Source: an uncultured beta proteobacterium
Lineage (GTDB): Bacteria; Pseudomonadota; Gammaproteobacteria; Burkholderiales; Usitatibacteraceae
Length of the DNA: 64,000 nucleotides
Reading direction: 5' to 3'
Assembly (NCBI GenBank): GCA_963698265.1
Contig: CAVOQC010000001.1
Location: 1,106,680 to 1,170,679 of the forward strand
The position numbers and the translations under genes are program-made. Shown piece after piece: positions 21,779 to 44,501 of this stretch (position 1 is the stretch's first letter; the number at the start of each line of letters is the position of its first letter). Under the pieces are notes generated by a model. The model did no database searches and was not told where the DNA came from. It saw nothing but the letters and a program-made list of their open reading frames with translations.

Positions 21779-22672
21779 ATGACGATGGCAAGAAAGACGA
21801 AGCGCGCGAAGGCAGGGGACGAGGTTCTCGCCGACGCAAAGGAAGCGGACCGGATCGAGCAGTACTGGCATCTCGCGGGCCGCCCGAAGGCGCGCAAGCC
21901 GCCGGCGAAGTACAAGTACGTGAAGGAACTCGCCCATCTGCAGGTCGAGTTGATCAAGTTGCAGGAATGGGTGCGCCTGCAGGGCCTCAAGGTCGCCGTG
22001 ATCTTCGAGGGCCGCGACGCCGCCGGCAAGGGCGGCGTGATCAAGCGCATCGCCGAGTGCCTGAACCCGCGCATCTGCCGGATCGTGGCGCTGGGCACGC
22101 CCACGGAGCGCGAGCGCGGCCAGTGGTACTTCCAGCGCTACGTCCCGCACCTGCCGGCGCAGGGCGAGATCGTCCTCTTCGACCGCAGCTGGTACAACCG
22201 ATCCGGCGTGGAGCGCGTCATGGGCTTCTGCACCGAGACGGAGTACCGGGAGTTCCTGCGCTCCTGCCCGCTCTTCGAGGAGATGCTCATCCGCTCCGGC
22301 ATCGTGCTGGTGAAATACTGGTTCTCCGTGAACGACGAGGAACAGGAGCGGCGCTTCCAGGAGCGAATCAGGAACCCCACGAAGCGCTGGAAGCTGAGCC
22401 CCATGGACATCGAGTCGCGCAAGCACTGGAGCGAATATTCGCGGGCCAAGGACATCATGTTCGCGGCAACCGACCGGAAGCAGACGCCGTGGTGGGTGGT
22501 CGATGCCGACAACAAGAAGCGGGCGCGCCTGAACTGCATCGCGCACCTCCTGCGCCAGGTTCCCTACGAGAACATGACGCCCGTGGAGATCGAGGTGCCG
22601 CCGCGTCAGGGAGACATCGGCTACCGGCGGCCGAAGAAGTCGAGCCAGCGCTTCGTGGAGAGCGTCTACTAG
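21779..22672 (+). CDS. ppk2: Polyphosphate kinase 2
   Basis: VIFEGRDAAGKGGVIKRI (Walker A), FDRSWYNRSGVERVMGF, KLSPMD, WWVVDADNKKRARLN. Confidence 0.92.
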   Translation: MTMARKTKRAKAGDEVLADAKEADRIEQYWHLAGRPKARKPPAKYKYVKELAHLQVELIKLQEWVRLQGLKVAVIFEGRDAAGKGGVIKRIAECLNPRICRIVALGTPTERERGQWYFQRYVPHLPAQGEIVLFDRSWYNRSGVERVMGFCTETEYREFLRSCPLFEEMLIRSGIVLVKYWFSVNDEEQERRFQERIRNPTKRWKLSPMDIESRKHWSEYSRAKDIMFAATDRKQTPWWVVDADNKKRARLNCIAHLLRQVPYENMTPVEIEVPPRQGDIGYRRPKKSSQRFVESVY

Positions 22673-22694: not shown

Positions 22695-25600
22695 CTAGGG
22701 GCTCGCCCGGCGGGCCCTCGCGATGTCGGCGCGAAGATTCGCGCCGGTCTTCCACTTGCTCAGGGCCGGCGCGATGCTGTCGAGGACGGCGGTGGCCTCG
22801 GCGAGCAGCGCGGCGCGCCTGGCCGGCTCGGCGAGCGCCGAAACATAGACGGCGTGGGCGTACTCGAAGTGCTGCAGGTGGGAATCGTGGCGGCGCGCGA
22901 GCTGCTTGCGATGGAACTCGAGCGCCGGCTGCAGGATCTCGCGCGCCTCCGCCAGCCGCCCCTGGCGCGCGACGGCCTCGGCGAGGTACACCTGGAACAC
23001 GGCGCCTTCGCGCTCGGTCCCGAACAGGTCACGGCGCGGCAGCTTGGCGTGCTCGGCGACCATGACGCGTGCCGCCGCTTCCGCGGCCGCGAAATCGCCC
23101 AGCTCCAGGGACGCGAGGCCGATGATCTGGCTGGCGCGGATGCGAAAGCGGCCGAACCACTCCACGTCGGCCTGGCTCTCGGGCTTGATGTCGCCCAGCC
23201 CCCCCAGCGCGGTTCGCGCCTGCTGCAAGGCCTTTCGCGGGTCGCCCTCGAGGTACGGCAGGTACGCCTCGTAGGCTTCGAGCCACAGGCGCGAGAAACC
23301 GACGATCATCGGCGCGGAAGTCGGCTTGATGTACGTCTCCCACAGGCGCCGGCTTTCCGCGACCGTGGCCTTCGCCGCTGCATGGTTGCCGAGCTCGGCG
23401 TCGATTTCCGCCGAGATCCCCAGCCAGATCATCGCGTTTCGCGCCTGGAAGGAGCCGATCTTGGGCATCTGCTCGCGCACCTGCGCGGCGGAGCGGAACT
23501 TGTCGCGTGCCTCGGCGAGGCGGCCCGACTCCATGAGGGCGCCGGCCGTTCGCTGCCGCGCCACGCCCAGGTTGTTCAGGGAGGCCGTATTGGTGGAGGC
23601 GACCTTCACCATGCCTTCGTAGAGGGCCTCGTTCTCGCGCAGGAGCACCATCGCCTTCGCGATCCGCAGGTCGAACACCTCCAGGTCGGAGAGGGCGCCG
23701 AGCACGAGCCCCTTGGTGTGGATCGCCGTCGCATGGCCGGGCATTGCGTCGAGGACCTTGTTGGCGATCGCGAGCGACTCCTCGTTCTTCGCGCGGGACT
23801 CGGGCCACTTGCCCGTATCGTAGAGCGCGTCAGCGAGCCACGCGCCGGCGTTGGAATAGCCGGCGGCGGCCGAGAGGTCCGCGAGGCCCGGCGCGCCCAG
23901 CCGGCGGAAAACCTCCTGGGCCTCCTGCAGGTAGCCGATGGCTTTCCGGGCATCCCCGAAATTGCGCGTGGTGTAGCCCATCCCGGTGAGCAGCTCTCCG
24001 TACTGGCGAAGCACCGCGACCGAAGGCTTGGGCGAGGCCTCGACGAGCGGCTTCAACTCGGCCTGCGCGGCTTCGCCGGCGCGCAGGGCCTCCGCGTGCT
24101 TGAGCTGGTTCACGAGAATCATCGCCTGGTAGCTCAGGGCGCTGCCCAGGCCCAGGCGCGTGGCTTCCGACGAATCTCCCTGGGAGCCCAGCCGGCGGAA
24201 GACGGCCTCGGCTTCCTTCAAGGCGACGAGCCCCTCCTCGTGCTTGCCCTGGCGGCGCGCGACGGCGCCGGCGCGCACGAGCGCCATCGCGCGGTTGCGC
24301 TCCGTGTCGGGCGTGCGAAGTTCCGGGGGCAGGCCCTTGTAGTAGTCGAGGGCGCGATGGGCGAGCGAGGCCACGATGTCGATCCGGCCGACGGGATCGA
24401 GTTCGCGCACGAAATCGTCGAGCAGGTAGACGAGGAGCTTCTCGGACTCGCCGCGCGCCGACTCGGCCAGCTGCCGCGTCTGCTGGGCCTTCGCTTCGGC
24501 TTCCTTGGCGCGGTTCATGTTCACGTAGCCGAAGACGGCGCCAACCACCGCGAGTATCGCAAGCACGGAGGCGCCCGCGGCCACCTGGCGTGCGCGCACC
24601 AGCGCCTTGCGCGTGGCGGCCTCGCGCTCGCGCTGGGCCTCGAGCTGGCGCTCGGCGTTCTCGCGCGCCTCGCGCGCGAGCCGCATCTCGCGGCTGGCGC
24701 GGACGACCCCGCACAGCACGTCGTGGGTGAGCTCCACGCGGCGCACGTCGAGGCGCTCCTCGATGCGCAGGAGCCGCCGGTTCACGAGCGTGGGCAACGC
24801 ATCCGGGGAGGCGCCCGCGGCTTCGAACGCCTTCACCACGCGTTCCTCCGCGAGGCTCTCTCGGTAGCCCGAGTCCGTGAGCAGCTCGTCCTCGATCACC
24901 TTGCGCACCGCCGGCGGCTGGTCGGCGAGCACGCGCTCGTAGAACTCGGCGAGGATCGTGTCGTGGGAGCCCGCCAGCAGGTCTGCGGAGATCTCCGCGC
25001 GGCCCTGGGCGAGGCGCGTGTTGTTGAGTTCCCGGCAGATGAGCGACAGGAGCGAGGGCTCGACCTCGGCGTTGCGCAGCTCCGAGCCCCCGGCGATGAA
25101 GCGCACGATCGCCTCGGCCACCTCTTCCGAGACGAGATCGCCGCCCGGCTTCATCACGGCGGAGAGCGCCTGCTGGCCGTTCATGCGGGCAAGCCGCATG
25201 CGATTCTGGGTGATCGAGGGCATTGCGCCCTTGAGCCCCTCCAGGTGCGCGAGGTAGTCCTCGCGCAGCGCGATGAGGATGCGGTAGTCGGCGCGGCCGA
25301 AGTCGAAGCGCTCGGGAACGGAATCGTCCGACTCGAGCTTCGCCTCGAGCGCCTTCGGGGGCCGGTTCTCCACGAGGTCGGCGAGATCCTCGATGAACTG
25401 CGCGGCGCGCGCCTTGCCTGCATCGTCGGCCTGGGCGAGCGTGAAGACCTCCTCGAACTGGTCGAAGATCAGCAGCGGAATGACGGTCTTGCCGCTGGCG
25501 TCCTTCAGGATGTCGTCGCGGTGGTGCAGGAACTCCCAGAGCGATTCGCCCTCGGCCGCCGTGCCCGGCTGCGTCCACGTTCCCGAGGACTGCGTCGCGC

Positions 25601-25934
25601 GGAAGATCGCCGCCTTGATCTGCTCCGTGGGCGGCGGCGAATCCGGCGAATAGTCGACGCGCACGTAGACGGGGCAGTACCCCTCCGGCCGCAGCCTCGG
25701 CACGATGCCCGCGCGCAGGATCGAGGTCTTGCCCAGGCCCGACTGGCCGAAGAGGATCGTCAGGAGCTTGCGCTGCACGCGCCGGCCAAGCTCGGCGACC
25801 TCCTCTTCGCGGCCATGGAAGAAGCCGCGCGTTTCCTCCGTGTACGAGGCGAGGCCCAGCCAGGGATGCTGCGGGTCGATCGCGGGGGAAGACCCCGGCG
25901 CCGCGTCCTGCGCCTTCGCGGTCTCCGCGCTCAT
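22695..25934 (-). CDS. STAND-type P-loop NTPase (nSTAND-like) with internal TM helix and TPR-like C-terminal half
   Basis: N-terminus PWLGLASYTEETRGFFHGREEEVAELGRRV-x-LLTILFGQSGLGKTSILRAGIVPRL (Walker A at 25722-25748). Walker B VIPLLIFDQFEEVF. Helical/winged-helix region ending RRVELTHDVL. Coiled coil, then hydrophobic helix VAAGASVLAILAVVGAVFGYV (24522-24584), then about 600 aa of TPR-like repeats. The start ATG overlaps the upstream TGA (25931-25934). The track ORF extends to 26213, but that extension overlaps the upstream gene. Confidence 0.85.
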   Translation of the reverse strand: MSAETAKAQDAAPGSSPAIDPQHPWLGLASYTEETRGFFHGREEEVAELGRRVQRKLLTILFGQSGLGKTSILRAGIVPRLRPEGYCPVYVRVDYSPDSPPPTEQIKAAIFRATQSSGTWTQPGTAAEGESLWEFLHHRDDILKDASGKTVIPLLIFDQFEEVFTLAQADDAGKARAAQFIEDLADLVENRPPKALEAKLESDDSVPERFDFGRADYRILIALREDYLAHLEGLKGAMPSITQNRMRLARMNGQQALSAVMKPGGDLVSEEVAEAIVRFIAGGSELRNAEVEPSLLSLICRELNNTRLAQGRAEISADLLAGSHDTILAEFYERVLADQPPAVRKVIEDELLTDSGYRESLAEERVVKAFEAAGASPDALPTLVNRRLLRIEERLDVRRVELTHDVLCGVVRASREMRLAREARENAERQLEAQREREAATRKALVRARQVAAGASVLAILAVVGAVFGYVNMNRAKEAEAKAQQTRQLAESARGESEKLLVYLLDDFVRELDPVGRIDIVASLAHRALDYYKGLPPELRTPDTERNRAMALVRAGAVARRQGKHEEGLVALKEAEAVFRRLGSQGDSSEATRLGLGSALSYQAMILVNQLKHAEALRAGEAAQAELKPLVEASPKPSVAVLRQYGELLTGMGYTTRNFGDARKAIGYLQEAQEVFRRLGAPGLADLSAAAGYSNAGAWLADALYDTGKWPESRAKNEESLAIANKVLDAMPGHATAIHTKGLVLGALSDLEVFDLRIAKAMVLLRENEALYEGMVKVASTNTASLNNLGVARQRTAGALMESGRLAEARDKFRSAAQVREQMPKIGSFQARNAMIWLGISAEIDAELGNHAAAKATVAESRRLWETYIKPTSAPMIVGFSRLWLEAYEAYLPYLEGDPRKALQQARTALGGLGDIKPESQADVEWFGRFRIRASQIIGLASLELGDFAAAEAAARVMVAEHAKLPRRDLFGTEREGAVFQVYLAEAVARQGRLAEAREILQPALEFHRKQLARRHDSHLQHFEYAHAVYVSALAEPARRAALLAEATAVLDSIAPALSKWKTGANLRADIARARRASP
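24522..24584 (-). other. Predicted single transmembrane helix inside the STAND NTPase (residues about 451-471)
   Basis: 21 uncharged residues VAAGASVLAILAVVGAVFGYV, flanked by RKALVRARQ on the N-side and NMNRAKE on the C-side. Confidence 0.6.
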
Positions 25935-27328
25935 GCGCCGCCCCGGCCGCCGGTGCTCGTGAGCTCCTTCAGGCGGTTCACGAACTCCGGGGTTGCGGCG
26001 CCACCCGGCAACTGCGTGAGGTGCACGGCCTTGAACTTGTCGGGCACGCGCGCGCCGCGCGGGTCCGTGTCGTCGATGCACACCGGCAGGATGAAGATCG
26101 CCTCGTCGGCCATGTTGCGCGTGCGGTCCAGTGCGTAGCTCCATTCGCGGCGGAAGTAGGCCTCCAGCCGGCGGTCCGTCGTGGCGGAGACCACCGGGAT
26201 GAAGTAGGAGCATCGCGCGATGTTCTTCTGGATCTTGCGGTCGTAGTCGTCGCCGCCTTCGAGCCGGTCCATGTCGAACCAGGTCGTGATGCCGGCGGCG
26301 TCGAGCCCGCTCTTCAGTTTCTGCACGGCCGCGAGATCCTCGCGCGCGTAGCTCACGAAAACCGCGTTGTCGGGCATCTCGCGCTCGGGCGGCAGGAAGC
26401 GCTGCGGTGCCGCGCCCAGCGCGATCACCTCGCCCGGCTTGCGCCGCGCCGTCCAGCGGCGATGCAATTCGTCCACGAACTGCTCGGCGCCGCTGTAGAC
26501 GCGGGTGCGCACGCTCACCTGCTGGAGAAACGCCATCAGGCGATCATCCTGGTCGGAATGGTCGTCGGCGAGCACTTCGCCCACGTCGCGCGGGTCGGAG
26601 AGCCGCCGGCGCTTGGCCATGCGCAGGAACAGGCGCGCGAGCCAGTTCGAGAAGTTGCTGCCGATGAGGAGCAGGTGGCTGTGCTCGAGCTCGTAGAAGA
26701 GCTTCTCGGGCGTCAGGTGCTCGCTCTGCAGCGCGCAGACGAATTCGAGCACGTCCTCGTCGGAGATCACGTAGGTGGGCGAGGCAGAAACGCGGCCGAG
26801 CAGGTGGTAGACCACGGGCCGCTGCAACTGCTCGCGCTCGCCCGGCAGGTCCGCCACGCGGTTGGGCGCGTAGCTCACGACCTCCGTGGACTGGGCCCCC
26901 GCAAACCTCGTCTCGTTGATCGCCTGCTCGAGGAAGGTATCGAAGGTGGTCGAGACGAAGAGGTCGAAGTCGGTGATCTCGGCGAGCTGGCGAAGCGCCT
27001 TCGGCGGCGCGAAGTTCGTGTCGCGCAGGATGGCGCGCATGCGCGTGTAGGTGTCCTCGCGGCGCCCGCGCGCGGAGAGGAACCAGCAGACGACGTCGTT
27101 CAGCGTGTAGGGCTGCGGCAGGCGCGTCGTGTCCACGCCGAGCTTCGCGGCGAGCTTTTCCGCCATCCAGTCGTAGAGCAGGCGCGGGCCCGATTCCGTC
27201 TCGACCTTGAGGAGTTCCGGGCCGACGATGGGAATGACGCGTCTTTCCTCGATGAAGTCGAGGAGATCCTCCCAGGCGTCCTCGTCCAGCGTGGGCAGCG
27301 GCGTTTCGAGCGCGTGCACGTTGCTCAC
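25931..27328 (-). CDS. SIR2-like (SIR2_2-type Rossmann) domain fused to a C-terminal TIR domain
   Basis: The N-terminal domain shows the SIR2_2 motif order with substitutions: VIPIVGPELL, FVSTTFDTFLE, PVVYHLLGRV, LLLIGSNFSNW. The C-terminal TIR is VFVSYAREDLAAVQKLKSGLDAAGITTWFDMD...YFIPVVSATT...EAYFRREWSYAL...ILPVCID. Confidence 0.85.
   Translation of the reverse strand: MSNVHALETPLPTLDEDAWEDLLDFIEERRVIPIVGPELLKVETESGPRLLYDWMAEKLAAKLGVDTTRLPQPYTLNDVVCWFLSARGRREDTYTRMRAILRDTNFAPPKALRQLAEITDFDLFVSTTFDTFLEQAINETRFAGAQSTEVVSYAPNRVADLPGEREQLQRPVVYHLLGRVSASPTYVISDEDVLEFVCALQSEHLTPEKLFYELEHSHLLLIGSNFSNWLARLFLRMAKRRRLSDPRDVGEVLADDHSDQDDRLMAFLQQVSVRTRVYSGAEQFVDELHRRWTARRKPGEVIALGAAPQRFLPPEREMPDNAVFVSYAREDLAAVQKLKSGLDAAGITTWFDMDRLEGGDDYDRKIQKNIARCSYFIPVVSATTDRRLEAYFRREWSYALDRTRNMADEAIFILPVCIDDTDPRGARVPDKFKAVHLTQLPGGAATPEFVNRLKELTSTGGRGGA
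25994..26368 (-). other. TIR domain (residues about 321-445) with candidate catalytic Glu395 (codon 26144-26146)
   Basis: (F/V)(V/I)SY...D start motif, and the S-x-W-x-x-E-like region aligned to FRREW. Confidence 0.7.
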
Positions 27329-27551
27329 GGGTGCAGACCTCGGGACGAAGGAGACGACGGCTGGAACGGAACCGGCACGGATGCACCCCCAGGTTTCGTT
27401 TCGAGTCCGGCGGGAAGGAACTGAACCCCGCGCGGCTGCGCCCCGGGGTCGGTTGCCCCGCTCGGCGCGGATGCAGCAAAGGGTAGGCCAAACTGCGCCA
27501 TTTGAATAGCCGGACTATCATCGGCGCTCGCGCATCGACCGGAATATCCCC

Positions 27552-29429
27552 ATGAAGCATGAGACGCCCGGCGCGGGAAACGCCGCGGAGGACAGCGCCG
27601 AGGAGGCGAGCGCGCGTGCGCAGCGCGAGCTCGATCGAGGCGAGCCGCTGCTCGCCTGCAACACGGCGCAGGCGGCGCTGGACCGCTGGCCGGAGCATGC
27701 GCGCCTGCGGCAACTTCACGCCCTGGCGCTGGTGCGAAGCGGCGACCTCGAGCGCGCGAACCGGATCCTCGCCGCGCTGGCCGCTGAGGGCAGGGACGAC
27801 GCGGAGACCCTCGGGATGCTCGCGCGCACCCACAAGGATCTCGCGCTGCGCGAAGCGGAAGGGCCGCGGCGCCGCGAGCACCTCGAGGCGGGATTCAGCC
27901 TCTACGAACGGGCCTTCGAATCGGCGCGCAAGCGCGGCGCCGTGGCGGACGCGTCCTACACCGGCATCAACGCGGCGACGATGGCGGTCTTCATGGACGA
28001 CCTCCCGGGCGCGCGCCGGATCGCTTCCGCCGTGCGGGAGGCGTGCGGACGCGACGAGGGCCGCAAGGCGCCCGAGCCGGCGCGCTACTGGAGGGAGGCC
28101 ACCCTCGGGGAGGCGGCGCTGATTCTCGGCGATGCCGGGGAGGCGGGCGTGCGCTACCGCAAGGCGAGGCTGCTCTCGGGCAAGCGCTTCGGGGATCTCG
28201 GCACCACGCGCCTGCAGGCGCGACGGCTTCAGGCGCGCCTCCCCGCGACCGGCGTGGACGTGGACGCGCTCCTCGCCGTTCCGCCGGTGCTCGTCTTCAC
28301 CGGCAACATGGTCGATGCGCCGGAGCGGGAGGCTGGCCGATTTCCGGCCGCGCTCGAGCCGGCGGTGCGCGAGGCGCTGCGCGAAGCCCTCGCTGCGATC
28401 GCCCCTCTCGCGGTGTACGGGTCCGCCGCCTGCGGAGCCGACATCCTCTGCCTGGAACTCGCGCGCGAGCGGGGAGCCGAGACCCACGTCGTGCTGCCGT
28501 TCCCGCCCGCGGAGTTCCGGCACGCGAGCGTCGATTTCGCCAGCGGCGACTGGGGCGAGCGATTCGAGCGGGCGCTCGCCGCGGCCCACAGCGTGACGGT
28601 GGCGAGCGACCATCGCGCGAGCGGCAGCGCGGCCTCCTTCGAGTACGCGAACCTCATCGCCACGGGCATGGGGCGGCTGCGGGCGCAGGTGCTCGACGCC
28701 CCGCTGCGCGCGCTCGCGGCGTGGGATGCCGGCGTGCCGGCGTCGCCGGGAGGTGCGGCCTCGGTCGTCTCGCTGTGGCGCTCGCGCGGAATCACCGTGG
28801 ACACGGTGGACCTCGCGGCGTTGCGCGCGGACGAAGGCTCGCCCGCTTCCGCGACGCCGGCGGCTTCCGTAGCGGCGACCGACGGCGCCACGCGCCACGA
28901 GCTGCGCGCGATGCTCTTCGCCGACGCCGTCGGCTACAGCCAGCTGAGCGAGGACCAGATCCCGCGCTACATCTCCGGCTTCCTCGGGGCCGTGGCCGAG
29001 CTGAGCCGGAAGACCGCGCACCCCTTCGAGCACGTCGAGACTTCCGGCGACGGGCTCTACATGGTGTTCGCGACCGTGGCCGACGCGGGCCAGTTCGCCC
29101 TCGAGCTGAGCGCGCTCGCCAACGGTCTCGACCGCGCGGCCTGCGGCCTGCCGGAGCGCTTCAACCTGCGCATCGCGCTGCACTGCGGCCCGGTGCACTG
29201 CGGGCGCGACCCCATCACCGGTTCGCGCCTCTACACCGGCCCGCACACCAGCCGCACGGCGCGAATCGAGCCGATCACGCCGCCGGGGCAGGTCTACGCG
29301 AGCAGCGCCTTCGCCGCCGTTGCCGCGGCGAGCGGCGCCGACGGGCTCGCGATGGGATATGTCGGGCGCATGCCGCTCGCCAAGGGATACGGTACGCTCG
29401 GCCTGTACCACGTCCGTCCGGCCCACTGA
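27552..29429 (+). CDS. Three-domain signalling protein: TPR-like (MAP3K TRAF-binding/DUF4071-like) + Rossmann SLOG-like + class III nucleotidyl cyclase
   Basis: N-domain motifs ETLGMLARTHKD, YTGINAATMAVF, RYWREATLGEAALILGD. Middle domain VLVFTGNMVDAP...RFP...LAVYGSAACGADILCLELARERGAETHVVLPF. C-terminal cyclase domain (28899-29411) MLFADAVGYS...ETSGDGLYMVF...LRIALHCGPV...GPHTSRTARIE. Confidence 0.85.
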   Translation: MKHETPGAGNAAEDSAEEASARAQRELDRGEPLLACNTAQAALDRWPEHARLRQLHALALVRSGDLERANRILAALAAEGRDDAETLGMLARTHKDLALREAEGPRRREHLEAGFSLYERAFESARKRGAVADASYTGINAATMAVFMDDLPGARRIASAVREACGRDEGRKAPEPARYWREATLGEAALILGDAGEAGVRYRKARLLSGKRFGDLGTTRLQARRLQARLPATGVDVDALLAVPPVLVFTGNMVDAPEREAGRFPAALEPAVREALREALAAIAPLAVYGSAACGADILCLELARERGAETHVVLPFPPAEFRHASVDFASGDWGERFERALAAAHSVTVASDHRASGSAASFEYANLIATGMGRLRAQVLDAPLRALAAWDAGVPASPGGAASVVSLWRSRGITVDTVDLAALRADEGSPASATPAASVAATDGATRHELRAMLFADAVGYSQLSEDQIPRYISGFLGAVAELSRKTAHPFEHVETSGDGLYMVFATVADAGQFALELSALANGLDRAACGLPERFNLRIALHCGPVHCGRDPITGSRLYTGPHTSRTARIEPITPPGQVYASSAFAAVAAASGADGLAMGYVGRMPLAKGYGTLGLYHVRPAH

Positions 29430-40646: not shown

Positions 40647-40676
40647 TTGCCGCCGCCGCTCGCGGCACGATAGAAT
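40647..40676 (+). promoter_or_regulatory. Candidate sigma70 promoter of the metH leader
   Basis: TTGCCG - 18 nt - TAGAAT, about 120 nt upstream of the metH ATG. Confidence 0.4.
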
Positions 40677-40746
40677 CCGTCGCTAGCGCCGATTTGACCC
40701 ATCAGCTTGCGGGCGCTCAACAAATACCGCTAAAGCGACCGGCCCA

Positions 40747-40780
40747 GAAAACCCGTCGCGCGCAGACGGGTTTTTCGTTT
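40747..40780 (+). terminator. Intrinsic-terminator-like hairpin inside the metH 5' leader (attenuator or riboswitch expression platform candidate)
   Basis: AAAACCCGTC-gcgcgca-GACGGGTTTT followed by TCGTTT. It ends 17 nt before the metH ATG, and no upstream same-strand gene exists for it to terminate. Confidence 0.6.
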
Positions 40781-40796
40781 CCGGATCGCCACGACC

Positions 40797-44500
<3,704 letters not shown>

Positions 44501-44501
<1 letters not shown>

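Follow-up and report, generated by a model that had tools for sequence, protein, structure and literature searches.

Immune effectors of bacteria and eukaryotes cleave NAD mainly with two domains, SIR2 and TIR, and, to our knowledge, the SIR2_2 domain is an enzyme in every characterised prokaryotic system. What, then, is the role of a protein that carries both folds in one chain, and in which the sirtuin site appears to be degenerate? This question is raised by the gene of a 465-amino-acid (aa) SIR2-like/TIR fusion protein in a 64,000-nucleotide (nt) stretch of contig CAVOQC010000001.1, from an uncultured beta proteobacterium (the whole stretch is hereafter called the window). A sequence-only reading had proposed that the sirtuin fold has become a non-catalytic module and that TIR is the effector. 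This proposal is supported by the computational analysis described here, namely by the loss of the sirtuin catalytic dyad, by the selection acting on the domain that lost it, and by an invariant TIR glutamate, E395. On balance it is probable, if not by a wide measure, that the protein serves as effector in a conflict or defence module of the NLR-like (STAND NTPase) type, in which a pseudo-SIR2 scaffold or regulator would be combined with a TIR that acts as an NAD+-cleaving enzyme (NADase).

More than 4400 homologues of the protein were found, with full-length coverage starting at residue 1, and the open reading frame (ORF) and motif positions quoted earlier proved exact (VIPIVGPELL at residues 31-40, STTFD at 126-130, YHLLG at 174-178, GSNFSNW at 223-229, and FRREW at 392-396). 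Pfam assigns SIR2_2 (PF13289) to aa 123-269 (42.6 bits against a gathering cut-off of 24.5, E 8.2e-11) and TIR_2 to aa 323-438 (66.8 bits against a cut-off of 28, E 3.3e-18); both scores lie well over the cut-offs, so the domain calls are not due to chance. A set of 123 diverse full-length representatives, 35-57% identical to the query, was used for all family-wide counts given below and also served as input for an AlphaFold2 model of the protein (mean predicted local distance difference test score, pLDDT, 92.6; predicted template modelling score 0.79). When this model was compared with solved structures using Foldseek, the top 50 matches were all ThsA, Avs5, KomBC or DSR2, the best among them being BcThsA, SeThsA, EcThsA, the EfAvs5/AVAST5 filaments, KomBC and DSR2 (E 7e-11 to 1e-6). 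Together with the SIR2_2 score, these matches bear out that the N-terminal domain is a SIR2 fold. ThsA is the best match for the protein as a whole (E 7e-11 to 3e-10), and as the ThsA alignments span approximately 470-530 columns, TIR occupies the place of the ThsA SLOG domain.

The alignment register of the N-terminal domain was obtained from two comparisons, I) the family profile against the sequences of two ThsA crystal structures with HMMER, and II) the domain against 22 ThsA-type SIR2 domains with hhalign (95.9% probability, E 5.7e-9, 195 aligned columns). Both agree on one register, which upholds the alignment that had originally been made by eye. The residues that are invariant in the 22 ThsA-type domains are G31, N97, H98, W110, T111, T112, N113, Y114, D115, K151, H153, G154, D155 and E170. 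In this register, the ThsA phosphate loop GAGLS is paired by hhalign with G36-P37-E38-L39-L40, of which only the first Gly is retained, with E38 in place of the second Gly and L40 in place of the Ser. TTNYD is paired with S126-T127-T128-F129-D130, which puts T128, a residue that the sequence-only reading had left unnamed, at the catalytic Asn, and YK(L/M)HGD with Y174-H175-L176-L177-G178-R179, which puts L177 at the catalytic His, while D-Y-x-E corresponds to D192-V193-L194-E195 and GFSFxD to G223...N228. The family follows the same pattern: position 177 is Leu in 56 representatives, Phe in 52, Met in 14 and Cys in one, and His in none of the 123, and position 128 is Thr in 96, Ser in nine, Ala in six, Asn in five, Gly in four and Phe in one. 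In the loop, G36 is invariant, position 38 is acidic in 103 of 123 (Glu in 55, Asp in 48), and position 40 is Leu in 84. The altered loop and the absence of Asn and His from the canonical positions, both of which had been read from the sequence of this one protein, are thus features of the family.

This loss is selective and does not represent general decay, since the motif residues of SIR2_2 outside the dyad (D130, D192, E195, G178, G223, and mostly D228) are retained; D130, D160, D192 and E195 are each conserved in at least 95% of the family (D130 in 117 of 123). Moreover, the ratio of nonsynonymous to synonymous substitution rates (dN/dS), determined against 82 orthologues, is 0.15 for the SIR2-like domain and 0.21 for TIR, and the mean pairwise identity across the family is 0.389 and 0.387, respectively. 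Purifying selection on the SIR2-like domain is therefore as strong as on TIR, which indicates that the domain has a function. Judged by its residues, it is a SIR2_2-homologous domain without the defining catalytic features and should not be classed as a SIR2 NADase. Since the second Gly of the phosphate loop has given way to an acidic residue, canonical NAD binding appears less likely than a non-catalytic role as scaffold or regulator.

The SIR2-like domain might, however, still be an enzyme via non-canonical residues (H175, D130, D160, D192 or E195), in which case the protein would be a dual NAD-processing effector. H175 precedes the canonical His by two residues within one strand and hence lies on the same face, the four acidic residues are highly conserved as given above, and the canonical Asn is kept in the five members already counted. 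On the other hand, His is found at position 175 in only 86 of the 123 representatives (Gln in 20, Tyr in six, Arg in four, Ala in two and Lys in two), and the domain contains no strictly invariant polar residue at all, whereas TIR has two, D352 and E395. In ThsA-type sirtuins both the Asn and the His are invariant, and the single mutants KomC H146A and FAM118B N163A serve as catalytically inactive controls. Very little credence is given to this alternative, and H175 was also rejected as a relocated catalytic His, being variable in the family and aligned with a Lys of ThsA. The five members that keep the Asn (TTN[FYLP]D; P0132, P0141, P0155, P0165 and P0208) carry Leu or Met in place of the His without exception, which suggests that the His was lost first in the history of the family.

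For the TIR domain, it had been claimed that a Glu is retained in FRREW at the place of the catalytic Glu, and this residue, E395, was found in all 123 representatives. In a search of the family profile against the PDB, the best matches were SPARTA TIR-APAZ chains (E 9e-12), and PdTIR was matched with E 1e-10. The TIR-APAZ alignment extends along helix C, where E395 is matched to the Glu in LKELAVA, which is E77 by the printed chain numbering; E77A is the catalytic-dead control of SPARTA TIR-APAZ (PMC10474274). D352 is likewise present in 123 of 123, and F324, S326, Y327, D331, W350, G359 (121 of 123), S381 and A399 are nearly invariant, so that the signature of strand A, strand B and BB-loop (F-x-S-Y, W-x-D and the BB-loop Gly) is found in F324, S326, Y327, W350, D352 and G359. 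E395 is also kept in all variant architectures and in a 32%-identical homologue from Paraburkholderia. The nearest TIRs by sequence, i.e., SPARTA TIR-APAZ and the pAgo-TIR and SAVED-TIR models of PADLOC, are NAD-depleting effectors. The domain thus has the sequence features of a catalytic TIR and is predicted to be active.

One comparison speaks against this assignment. In local single-sequence matches to AbTIR and PdTIR, W396 is paired with their Trp, and their Glu then falls on A399; with phmmer and the AbTIR-like structure 7uwg, for example, W396 is paired with the Trp of DWTNYE, and the FKKEW of PdTIR resembles FRREW. If A399 were the true equivalent, E395 would not be catalytic, both domains would be non-catalytic, and the protein would act as scaffold or adaptor in the manner of most TIR adaptors of animals. 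This match was judged to be a shifted local match of FRREW to FKKEW/KKDW of PdTIR/AbTIR and was rejected for several reasons. The profile alignments to AbTIR-type chains end before this helix, whereas the best-scoring profile alignment, to TIR-APAZ, spans it completely. By residue counting by hand, E395 lies 14 residues past S381, where strand C ends, compared with 12-13 in AbTIR and SPARTA, and placing the Glu on A399 would require a six-residue insertion. An aromatic residue (Y/F391) precedes E395 by four residues, as the Trp of AbTIR precedes its Glu, and an invariant Glu one turn from A399 fits the E-x-x-x-A of SPARTA. Given also the invariance of E395 throughout the family and in every variant architecture, a purely adaptor-like protein is considered very unlikely.

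What, then, would control such a TIR? The gene immediately downstream encodes an nSTAND1 NTPase of 1079 aa with a C-terminal TPR sensor and the P-loop GQSGLGKTS. The stop of the SIR2-TIR gene and the start of the nSTAND1 gene share a 4-nt ATGA overlap, which recurs in the called genes of relatives and marks the two as translationally coupled genes of one predicted operon. Conservation of the neighbourhood was surveyed in 84 loci of relatives (L001-L084), of which 81 have room for a downstream gene and 49 have enough flanking sequence to judge the TPR-S gene described below. The nSTAND1 gene directly follows SIR2-TIR in 79 of the 81. Over 59 loci in which SIR2-TIR is 74-87% identical, the median identity is 82% for the NTPase half of the partner and 30% for its TPR half, and such a conserved engine with a hypervariable sensor is, on the face of the alignments, the signature of NLR-like immune receptors. 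As in STAND/NLR-like proteins, a STAND NTPase carries a C-terminal repeat sensor; the effector, however, is not fused to the N-terminus of the NTPase and is encoded by a separate, overlapping upstream gene. This sharp split of the NTPase into conserved engine and hypervariable sensor recommends the module as a candidate new family of bacterial pattern-recognition receptors whose effector is supplied in trans. The divergence of the TPR half itself could reflect either diversifying selection or cassette swapping.

In the favoured reading of an NLR-like module, a trigger would be bound by the hypervariable TPR sensor, upon which the nSTAND1 NTPase would oligomerise and recruit or re-arrange SIR2-TIR, so that the TIR domains could form composite active sites. 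TIR would then cleave NAD+ via E395, resulting in NAD+ depletion or in a product derived from ADP-ribose (ADPR). The pseudo-SIR2 domain would most likely keep the TIRs in an inactive arrangement at rest, and would most likely drive or template higher-order TIR assembly once the NTPase oligomerises. A precedent for a pseudoenzyme as regulatory module of a defence effector is KomB of Kongming, and in SARM1 the non-catalytic ARM domain gates a NAD-cleaving TIR. A role in assembly is plausible because the closest structural relatives of the domain (ThsA, Avs5 and KomBC) have been solved as helical filaments, and filament formation is described as a mode of activation common to this class of sirtuins (PMC12700824).

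A third gene, divergent from the SIR2-TIR gene, encodes a 625-aa protein composed of a TPR-S/MAP3K_TRAF_bd-type TPR region, a middle alpha-beta domain and a class III cyclase domain. Its AlphaFold2 model (pLDDT 87.7) matched the cyclases Rv1900c and Cya2 in Foldseek, with template modelling (TM) scores of up to 0.81. A TPR-S-cyclase homologue adjoins SIR2-TIR in 38 of the 49 informative loci; in 11 of these it lies upstream in divergent orientation, and in the other 27 it follows downstream, on the strand of SIR2-TIR. As a frequent third component, the TPR-S protein probably regulates the module or adds a second output, and its cyclase is not a universal part of the module: the TPR-S partner in Paraburkholderia has none. 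In the cyclase domain, the metal-binding D458 and D500 as well as R540 and R571 are invariant, and an invariant Ser (S567) takes the place of the canonical transition-state Asn, which leaves cyclase activity and product uncertain. The middle domain is a confidently modelled six-stranded alpha-beta Rossmann-like fold with the invariant motif GSAACGAD...E...H..LPFP. It gave no Pfam match and nothing in a sequence-profile search of the PDB, and Foldseek with the whole model returned only cyclase and TPR structures. By eye, the motif is like that of DprA/SLOG-type nucleotide-binding domains, and if this by-eye resemblance holds, the domain could be the receptor for the TIR product. The 223-bp intergenic region between the divergent genes, in which the promoters of both transcription units are presumed, showed no match in a scan for the sigma-70 consensus.

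The frequent presence of a cyclase bears on a further alternative, which differs from the favoured reading only in the role of the N-terminal domain. Here, the SIR2-like domain would retain part of the nicotinamide/ribose pocket, would be a ligand sensor for NAD+, nicotinamide mononucleotide, ADPR or a nucleotide signal such as a cyclic nucleoside monophosphate (cNMP) from the cyclase, and would gate TIR allosterically, in the way of SLOG in ThsA, ARM in SARM1 and KomB in Kongming. The retention of D130, D192, E195, G223 and mostly D228 is a classical signature of a ligand-binding pseudoenzyme, a cyclase-bearing protein is the usual neighbour, KomB again offers a precedent, and in the Foldseek alignments TIR lies opposite the SLOG of ThsA, as in a ThsA with swapped roles. 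Several features argue in the other direction. In GAGxS, Glu or Asp stands in for the second Gly and Leu for the Ser, a change that should disfavour canonical pyrophosphate binding; the ThsA-invariant residues N97/H98, K151, D155 and Y169 are also replaced; the domain lacks a strictly invariant polar residue; and the cyclase-free Paraburkholderia partner shows that a cNMP is not the universal input. A sensor role is kept as a tentative possibility of low but appreciable probability. Its fullest form, in which an inverted ThsA, i.e., a sirtuin fold turned small-molecule receptor, licenses the assembly of TIR filaments under an NLR-like NTPase, is unlikely, although it would, if true, define a new class of ligand-gated TIR effectors, with sensing done by the former effector domain and catalysis by the domain in the sensor position. 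A cNMP-gated TIR of the Pycsar/Pucsar type (10.64898/2026.08.12.744502) was rejected, as the TIR protein has no cNMP-binding domain and the cyclase is missing in Paraburkholderia; in Pycsar/Pucsar-type systems the cyclase is a stand-alone protein, whereas that of the window is the C-terminal domain of the TPR-S protein.

Compared with known systems, the module shares parts with several. ThsA, the type I Thoeris effector (SIR2-SLOG; 6LHX, 7UXT, 8BTO, 8WC0), is the best sequence-profile match of the N-terminal domain; it also places SIR2_2 before a Rossmann-like C-terminal domain and belongs to a filament-forming class. In ThsA, however, NAD+ is cleaved by SIR2, whose Asn and His are invariant, and sensing falls to SLOG, whereas the window protein has T128 and L177 at these positions and ends in TIR. 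Membership of Thoeris was rejected: no SLOG or Macro domain was detected, the partner is nSTAND1, there is no separate ThsB, and the ThsB models of PADLOC gave only weak partial matches (E 1e-4 and 0.03). Avs5/AVAST type 5 (SIR2-STAND; 9JAP, 9NC9), a high-ranking structural match for the N-terminal domain, also couples SIR2_2 to a STAND NTPase with a C-terminal sensor, but there an active SIR2 NADase is fused to the NTPase, whereas in the window the SIR2 is degenerate, TIR-bearing and encoded separately, and the NTPase is of the nSTAND1 clade. Fusion to the NTPase as in Avs5 is restricted to a few relatives, P0231 among them. With an effector in trans and no match to PADLOC or Avs models, the module falls outside Avs in the strict sense.

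The closest TIR by profile, SPARTA TIR-APAZ (8J8H, 8IFK, 8FEX), is a NAD-depleting effector activated by oligomerisation and has in common with the window protein the catalytic Glu (E77, paired with E395) and the E-x-x-x-A helix motif; it differs in having a short Argonaute as partner instead of a STAND NTPase, a TIR that is N-terminal to APAZ, and no SIR2-fold domain. In Kongming KomBC, a domain without catalysis (KomB) likewise controls a NAD-cleaving effector, and KomC is a good match for the N-terminal domain (TM score 0.70), but in Kongming catalysis resides in the sirtuin and the pseudoenzyme is a HAM1-fold protein, whereas here the sirtuin fold itself is the putative pseudoenzyme. Lastly, nSTAND1, TPR-S, EACC1 and bDLD3 have been described in the predicted NTP-dependent conflict systems of Kaur, Burroughs, Iyer and Aravind, in which inactive enzyme domains are a recurring theme (PMC7159879, PMC8195603). 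The window shares with these systems nSTAND1, TPR-S/MAP3K_TRAF_bd and a TIR effector, and relatives are found with bDLD3, EACC1 and caspase/CHAT, although neither window protein has an effector-associated adaptor domain. Going by its domains, the module is a member of this broad class of nSTAND1/TPR-S conflict systems.

Several observations sit uneasily with an anti-invader function. Conservation of the SIR2-TIR gene at 74-87% over many species of Burkholderiales is unusual for a defence gene; the flanks of the window are housekeeping genes, with no defence island or mobile element; and a PADLOC scan of the NTPase matched zero families; PADLOC has no model for nSTAND1 or TPR-S partners. The module could instead serve physiological NAD/cNMP signalling of soil and wastewater Burkholderiales, e.g., in stress or dormancy. 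In favour of such a device are the housekeeping flanks, which contain no mobile-element genes, the high conservation over many species, the failure of PADLOC to recognise the partners, and the distribution of the family, which had no matches in the phages searched and almost none on plasmids. Against it stand the extreme divergence of the TPR half relative to the NTPase, the flanking genes, which differ between relatives, and the caspase/CHAT, EACC1, bDLD3 and integrase genes that adjoin relatives; furthermore, predicted conflict systems are the source from which nSTAND1, TPR-S, EACC1 and bDLD3 were each defined (PMC8195603). A physiological role is considered highly improbable.

The system-level logic of a STAND sensor with a TIR effector is already familiar. 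In a large family, the sirtuin catalytic dyad has been specifically lost from a fold that is under strong selection and joined to an apparently active TIR. A search of 50%-identity representatives gave 11,771 matches with E<=1e-3, and under the stricter threshold of E<=1e-30 the family still has at least 1,505 clusters. Relatives occur in at least 576 species-representative genomes. No description of a SIR2-like/TIR fusion or of a degenerate sirtuin site was found in the literature searched, including the searchable text of the Aravind-group papers; the one trace is a tree legend that names TIR among the SIR2_2-fused domains (PMC12700824). Confirmation would make this the first sirtuin-fold pseudoenzyme of an immune-type module and a natural experiment in the reuse of SIR2 and TIR folds as scaffolds or sensors. 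The coordinates of all features of the module are listed in Table 1.

Table 1. Features of the SIR2-TIR/nSTAND1/TPR-S locus, with positions in the window
Feature	Position	Strand	Basis
SIR2-like/TIR fusion gene, 465 aa	25931..27328	(-)	ORF and translation; GTG start, GAGG 9 nt upstream
SIR2-fold domain (putative pseudoenzyme), aa 14-296	26441..27289	(-)	Foldseek to ThsA/Avs5/KomBC/DSR2; hhalign 95.9%; dN/dS 0.15
Degenerate GAGxS phosphate loop, G36-P37-E38-L39-L40	27209..27223	(-)	hhalign pairing with GAGLS
T128 codon, catalytic-Asn position (ThsA TTNYD)	26945..26947	(-)	HMMER and hhalign alignments
L177 codon, catalytic-His position (ThsA K(L/M)HG)	26798..26800	(-)	HMMER and hhalign alignments
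TIR domain, aa 320-440	26009..26371	(-)	Pfam TIR_2; family profile against PDB
E395 codon GAA, putative catalytic Glu	26144..26146	(-)	Invariant; aligned to TIR-APAZ E77
ATGA overlap, SIR2-TIR stop/nSTAND1 start	25931..25934	(-)	Sequence read directly
nSTAND1 NTPase with C-terminal TPR sensor, 1079 aa	22695..25934	(-)	Pfam nSTAND1 115.6 bits, TPR_12
NTPase part of nSTAND1 protein	~24627-25859	(-)	
Hypervariable TPR part of nSTAND1 protein	~22698-24254	(-)	
Divergent intergenic region, 223 bp, presumed promoters	27329..27551	(.)	Gene arrangement only
TPR-S/alpha-beta/class III cyclase protein, 625 aa	27552..29429	(+)	Pfam TPR-S 70 bits, Guanylate_cyc 25.6 bits
TPR-S/MAP3K_TRAF_bd-type TPR region	~27597-28271	(+)	
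Middle alpha-beta domain, aa 246-428	~28287-28835	(+)	
Class III cyclase domain	~28893-29420	(+)	

The same SIR2-TIR/nSTAND1 pairing is present in distant relatives, and these distant members as well as the Paraburkholderia copy all lack the sirtuin Asn and His and all have E395. In one distant member, a bacterial Death-like domain 3 (bDLD3) is inserted between SIR2 and TIR. Another locus (L085, 5994-11146) encodes a caspase-SIR2-like-TIR fusion (P0239), followed by nSTAND1 and preceded by a protein with a weak EACC1 domain and a phage-type integrase, a setting which hints that some family members reside on mobile islands. The 32%-identical SIR2-like/TIR gene mentioned above is located in the cultured Paraburkholderia caribensis MBA4 (L090; NZ_CP012748.1, 369061-388407), which makes the module testable. 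It is part of an operon of metallophosphoesterase, CHAT protease, GDSL-like, TPR-S/MAP3K_TRAF_bd (without cyclase), SIR2-TIR and nSTAND1 genes, in which the nSTAND1 protein is short (660 aa) and without a long TPR array; the PLSDB table carries no annotation for this region.

Two unusual architectures were given little weight. P0231, in which nSTAND1 is fused to SIR2-TIR, was considered as a Rosetta-stone fusion, but it lies within a tandem array of [SIR2-TIR][nSTAND1] pairs and may result from read-through. In P0121 (L091, 330-1751), an N-terminal domain that is 78% identical to the SIR2-like domain of the window is followed by a class III cyclase in place of TIR, which may reflect either a genuine swap of domains or a chimeric assembly. 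As the sole non-TIR example, on a single 2.7-kb metagenome scaffold without nSTAND1, it was not accepted as showing that the SIR2-like domain is a swappable adaptor. Copies with 77-79% identity to the betaproteobacterial gene also occur in metagenome-assembled genomes (MAGs) labelled Candidatus Levyibacteriota, Lacunisphaera and Opitutaceae (L038, L075 and L076), and these could be due to recent horizontal transfer or to binning contamination.

The gene order of the window flanks is identical in a wastewater betaproteobacterial MAG, and the flanking genes vary between relatives. A gene for a PPK2-family polyphosphate kinase (21779-22672, + strand) converges with the nSTAND1 gene, their 3' ends lying 23 bp apart; this neighbourhood is probably coincidental, because the adjacency is found only in the closest MAGs (L088 and L089) and not in other relatives. 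Further away, a SAM_alpha (SAM-II) riboswitch match (40676-40754, + strand; 37.1 bits against the Rfam gathering cut-off of 36) lies directly upstream of a 1234-aa ORF for a metH-like, B12-dependent methionine synthase (40797-44501), which is an ordinary arrangement.

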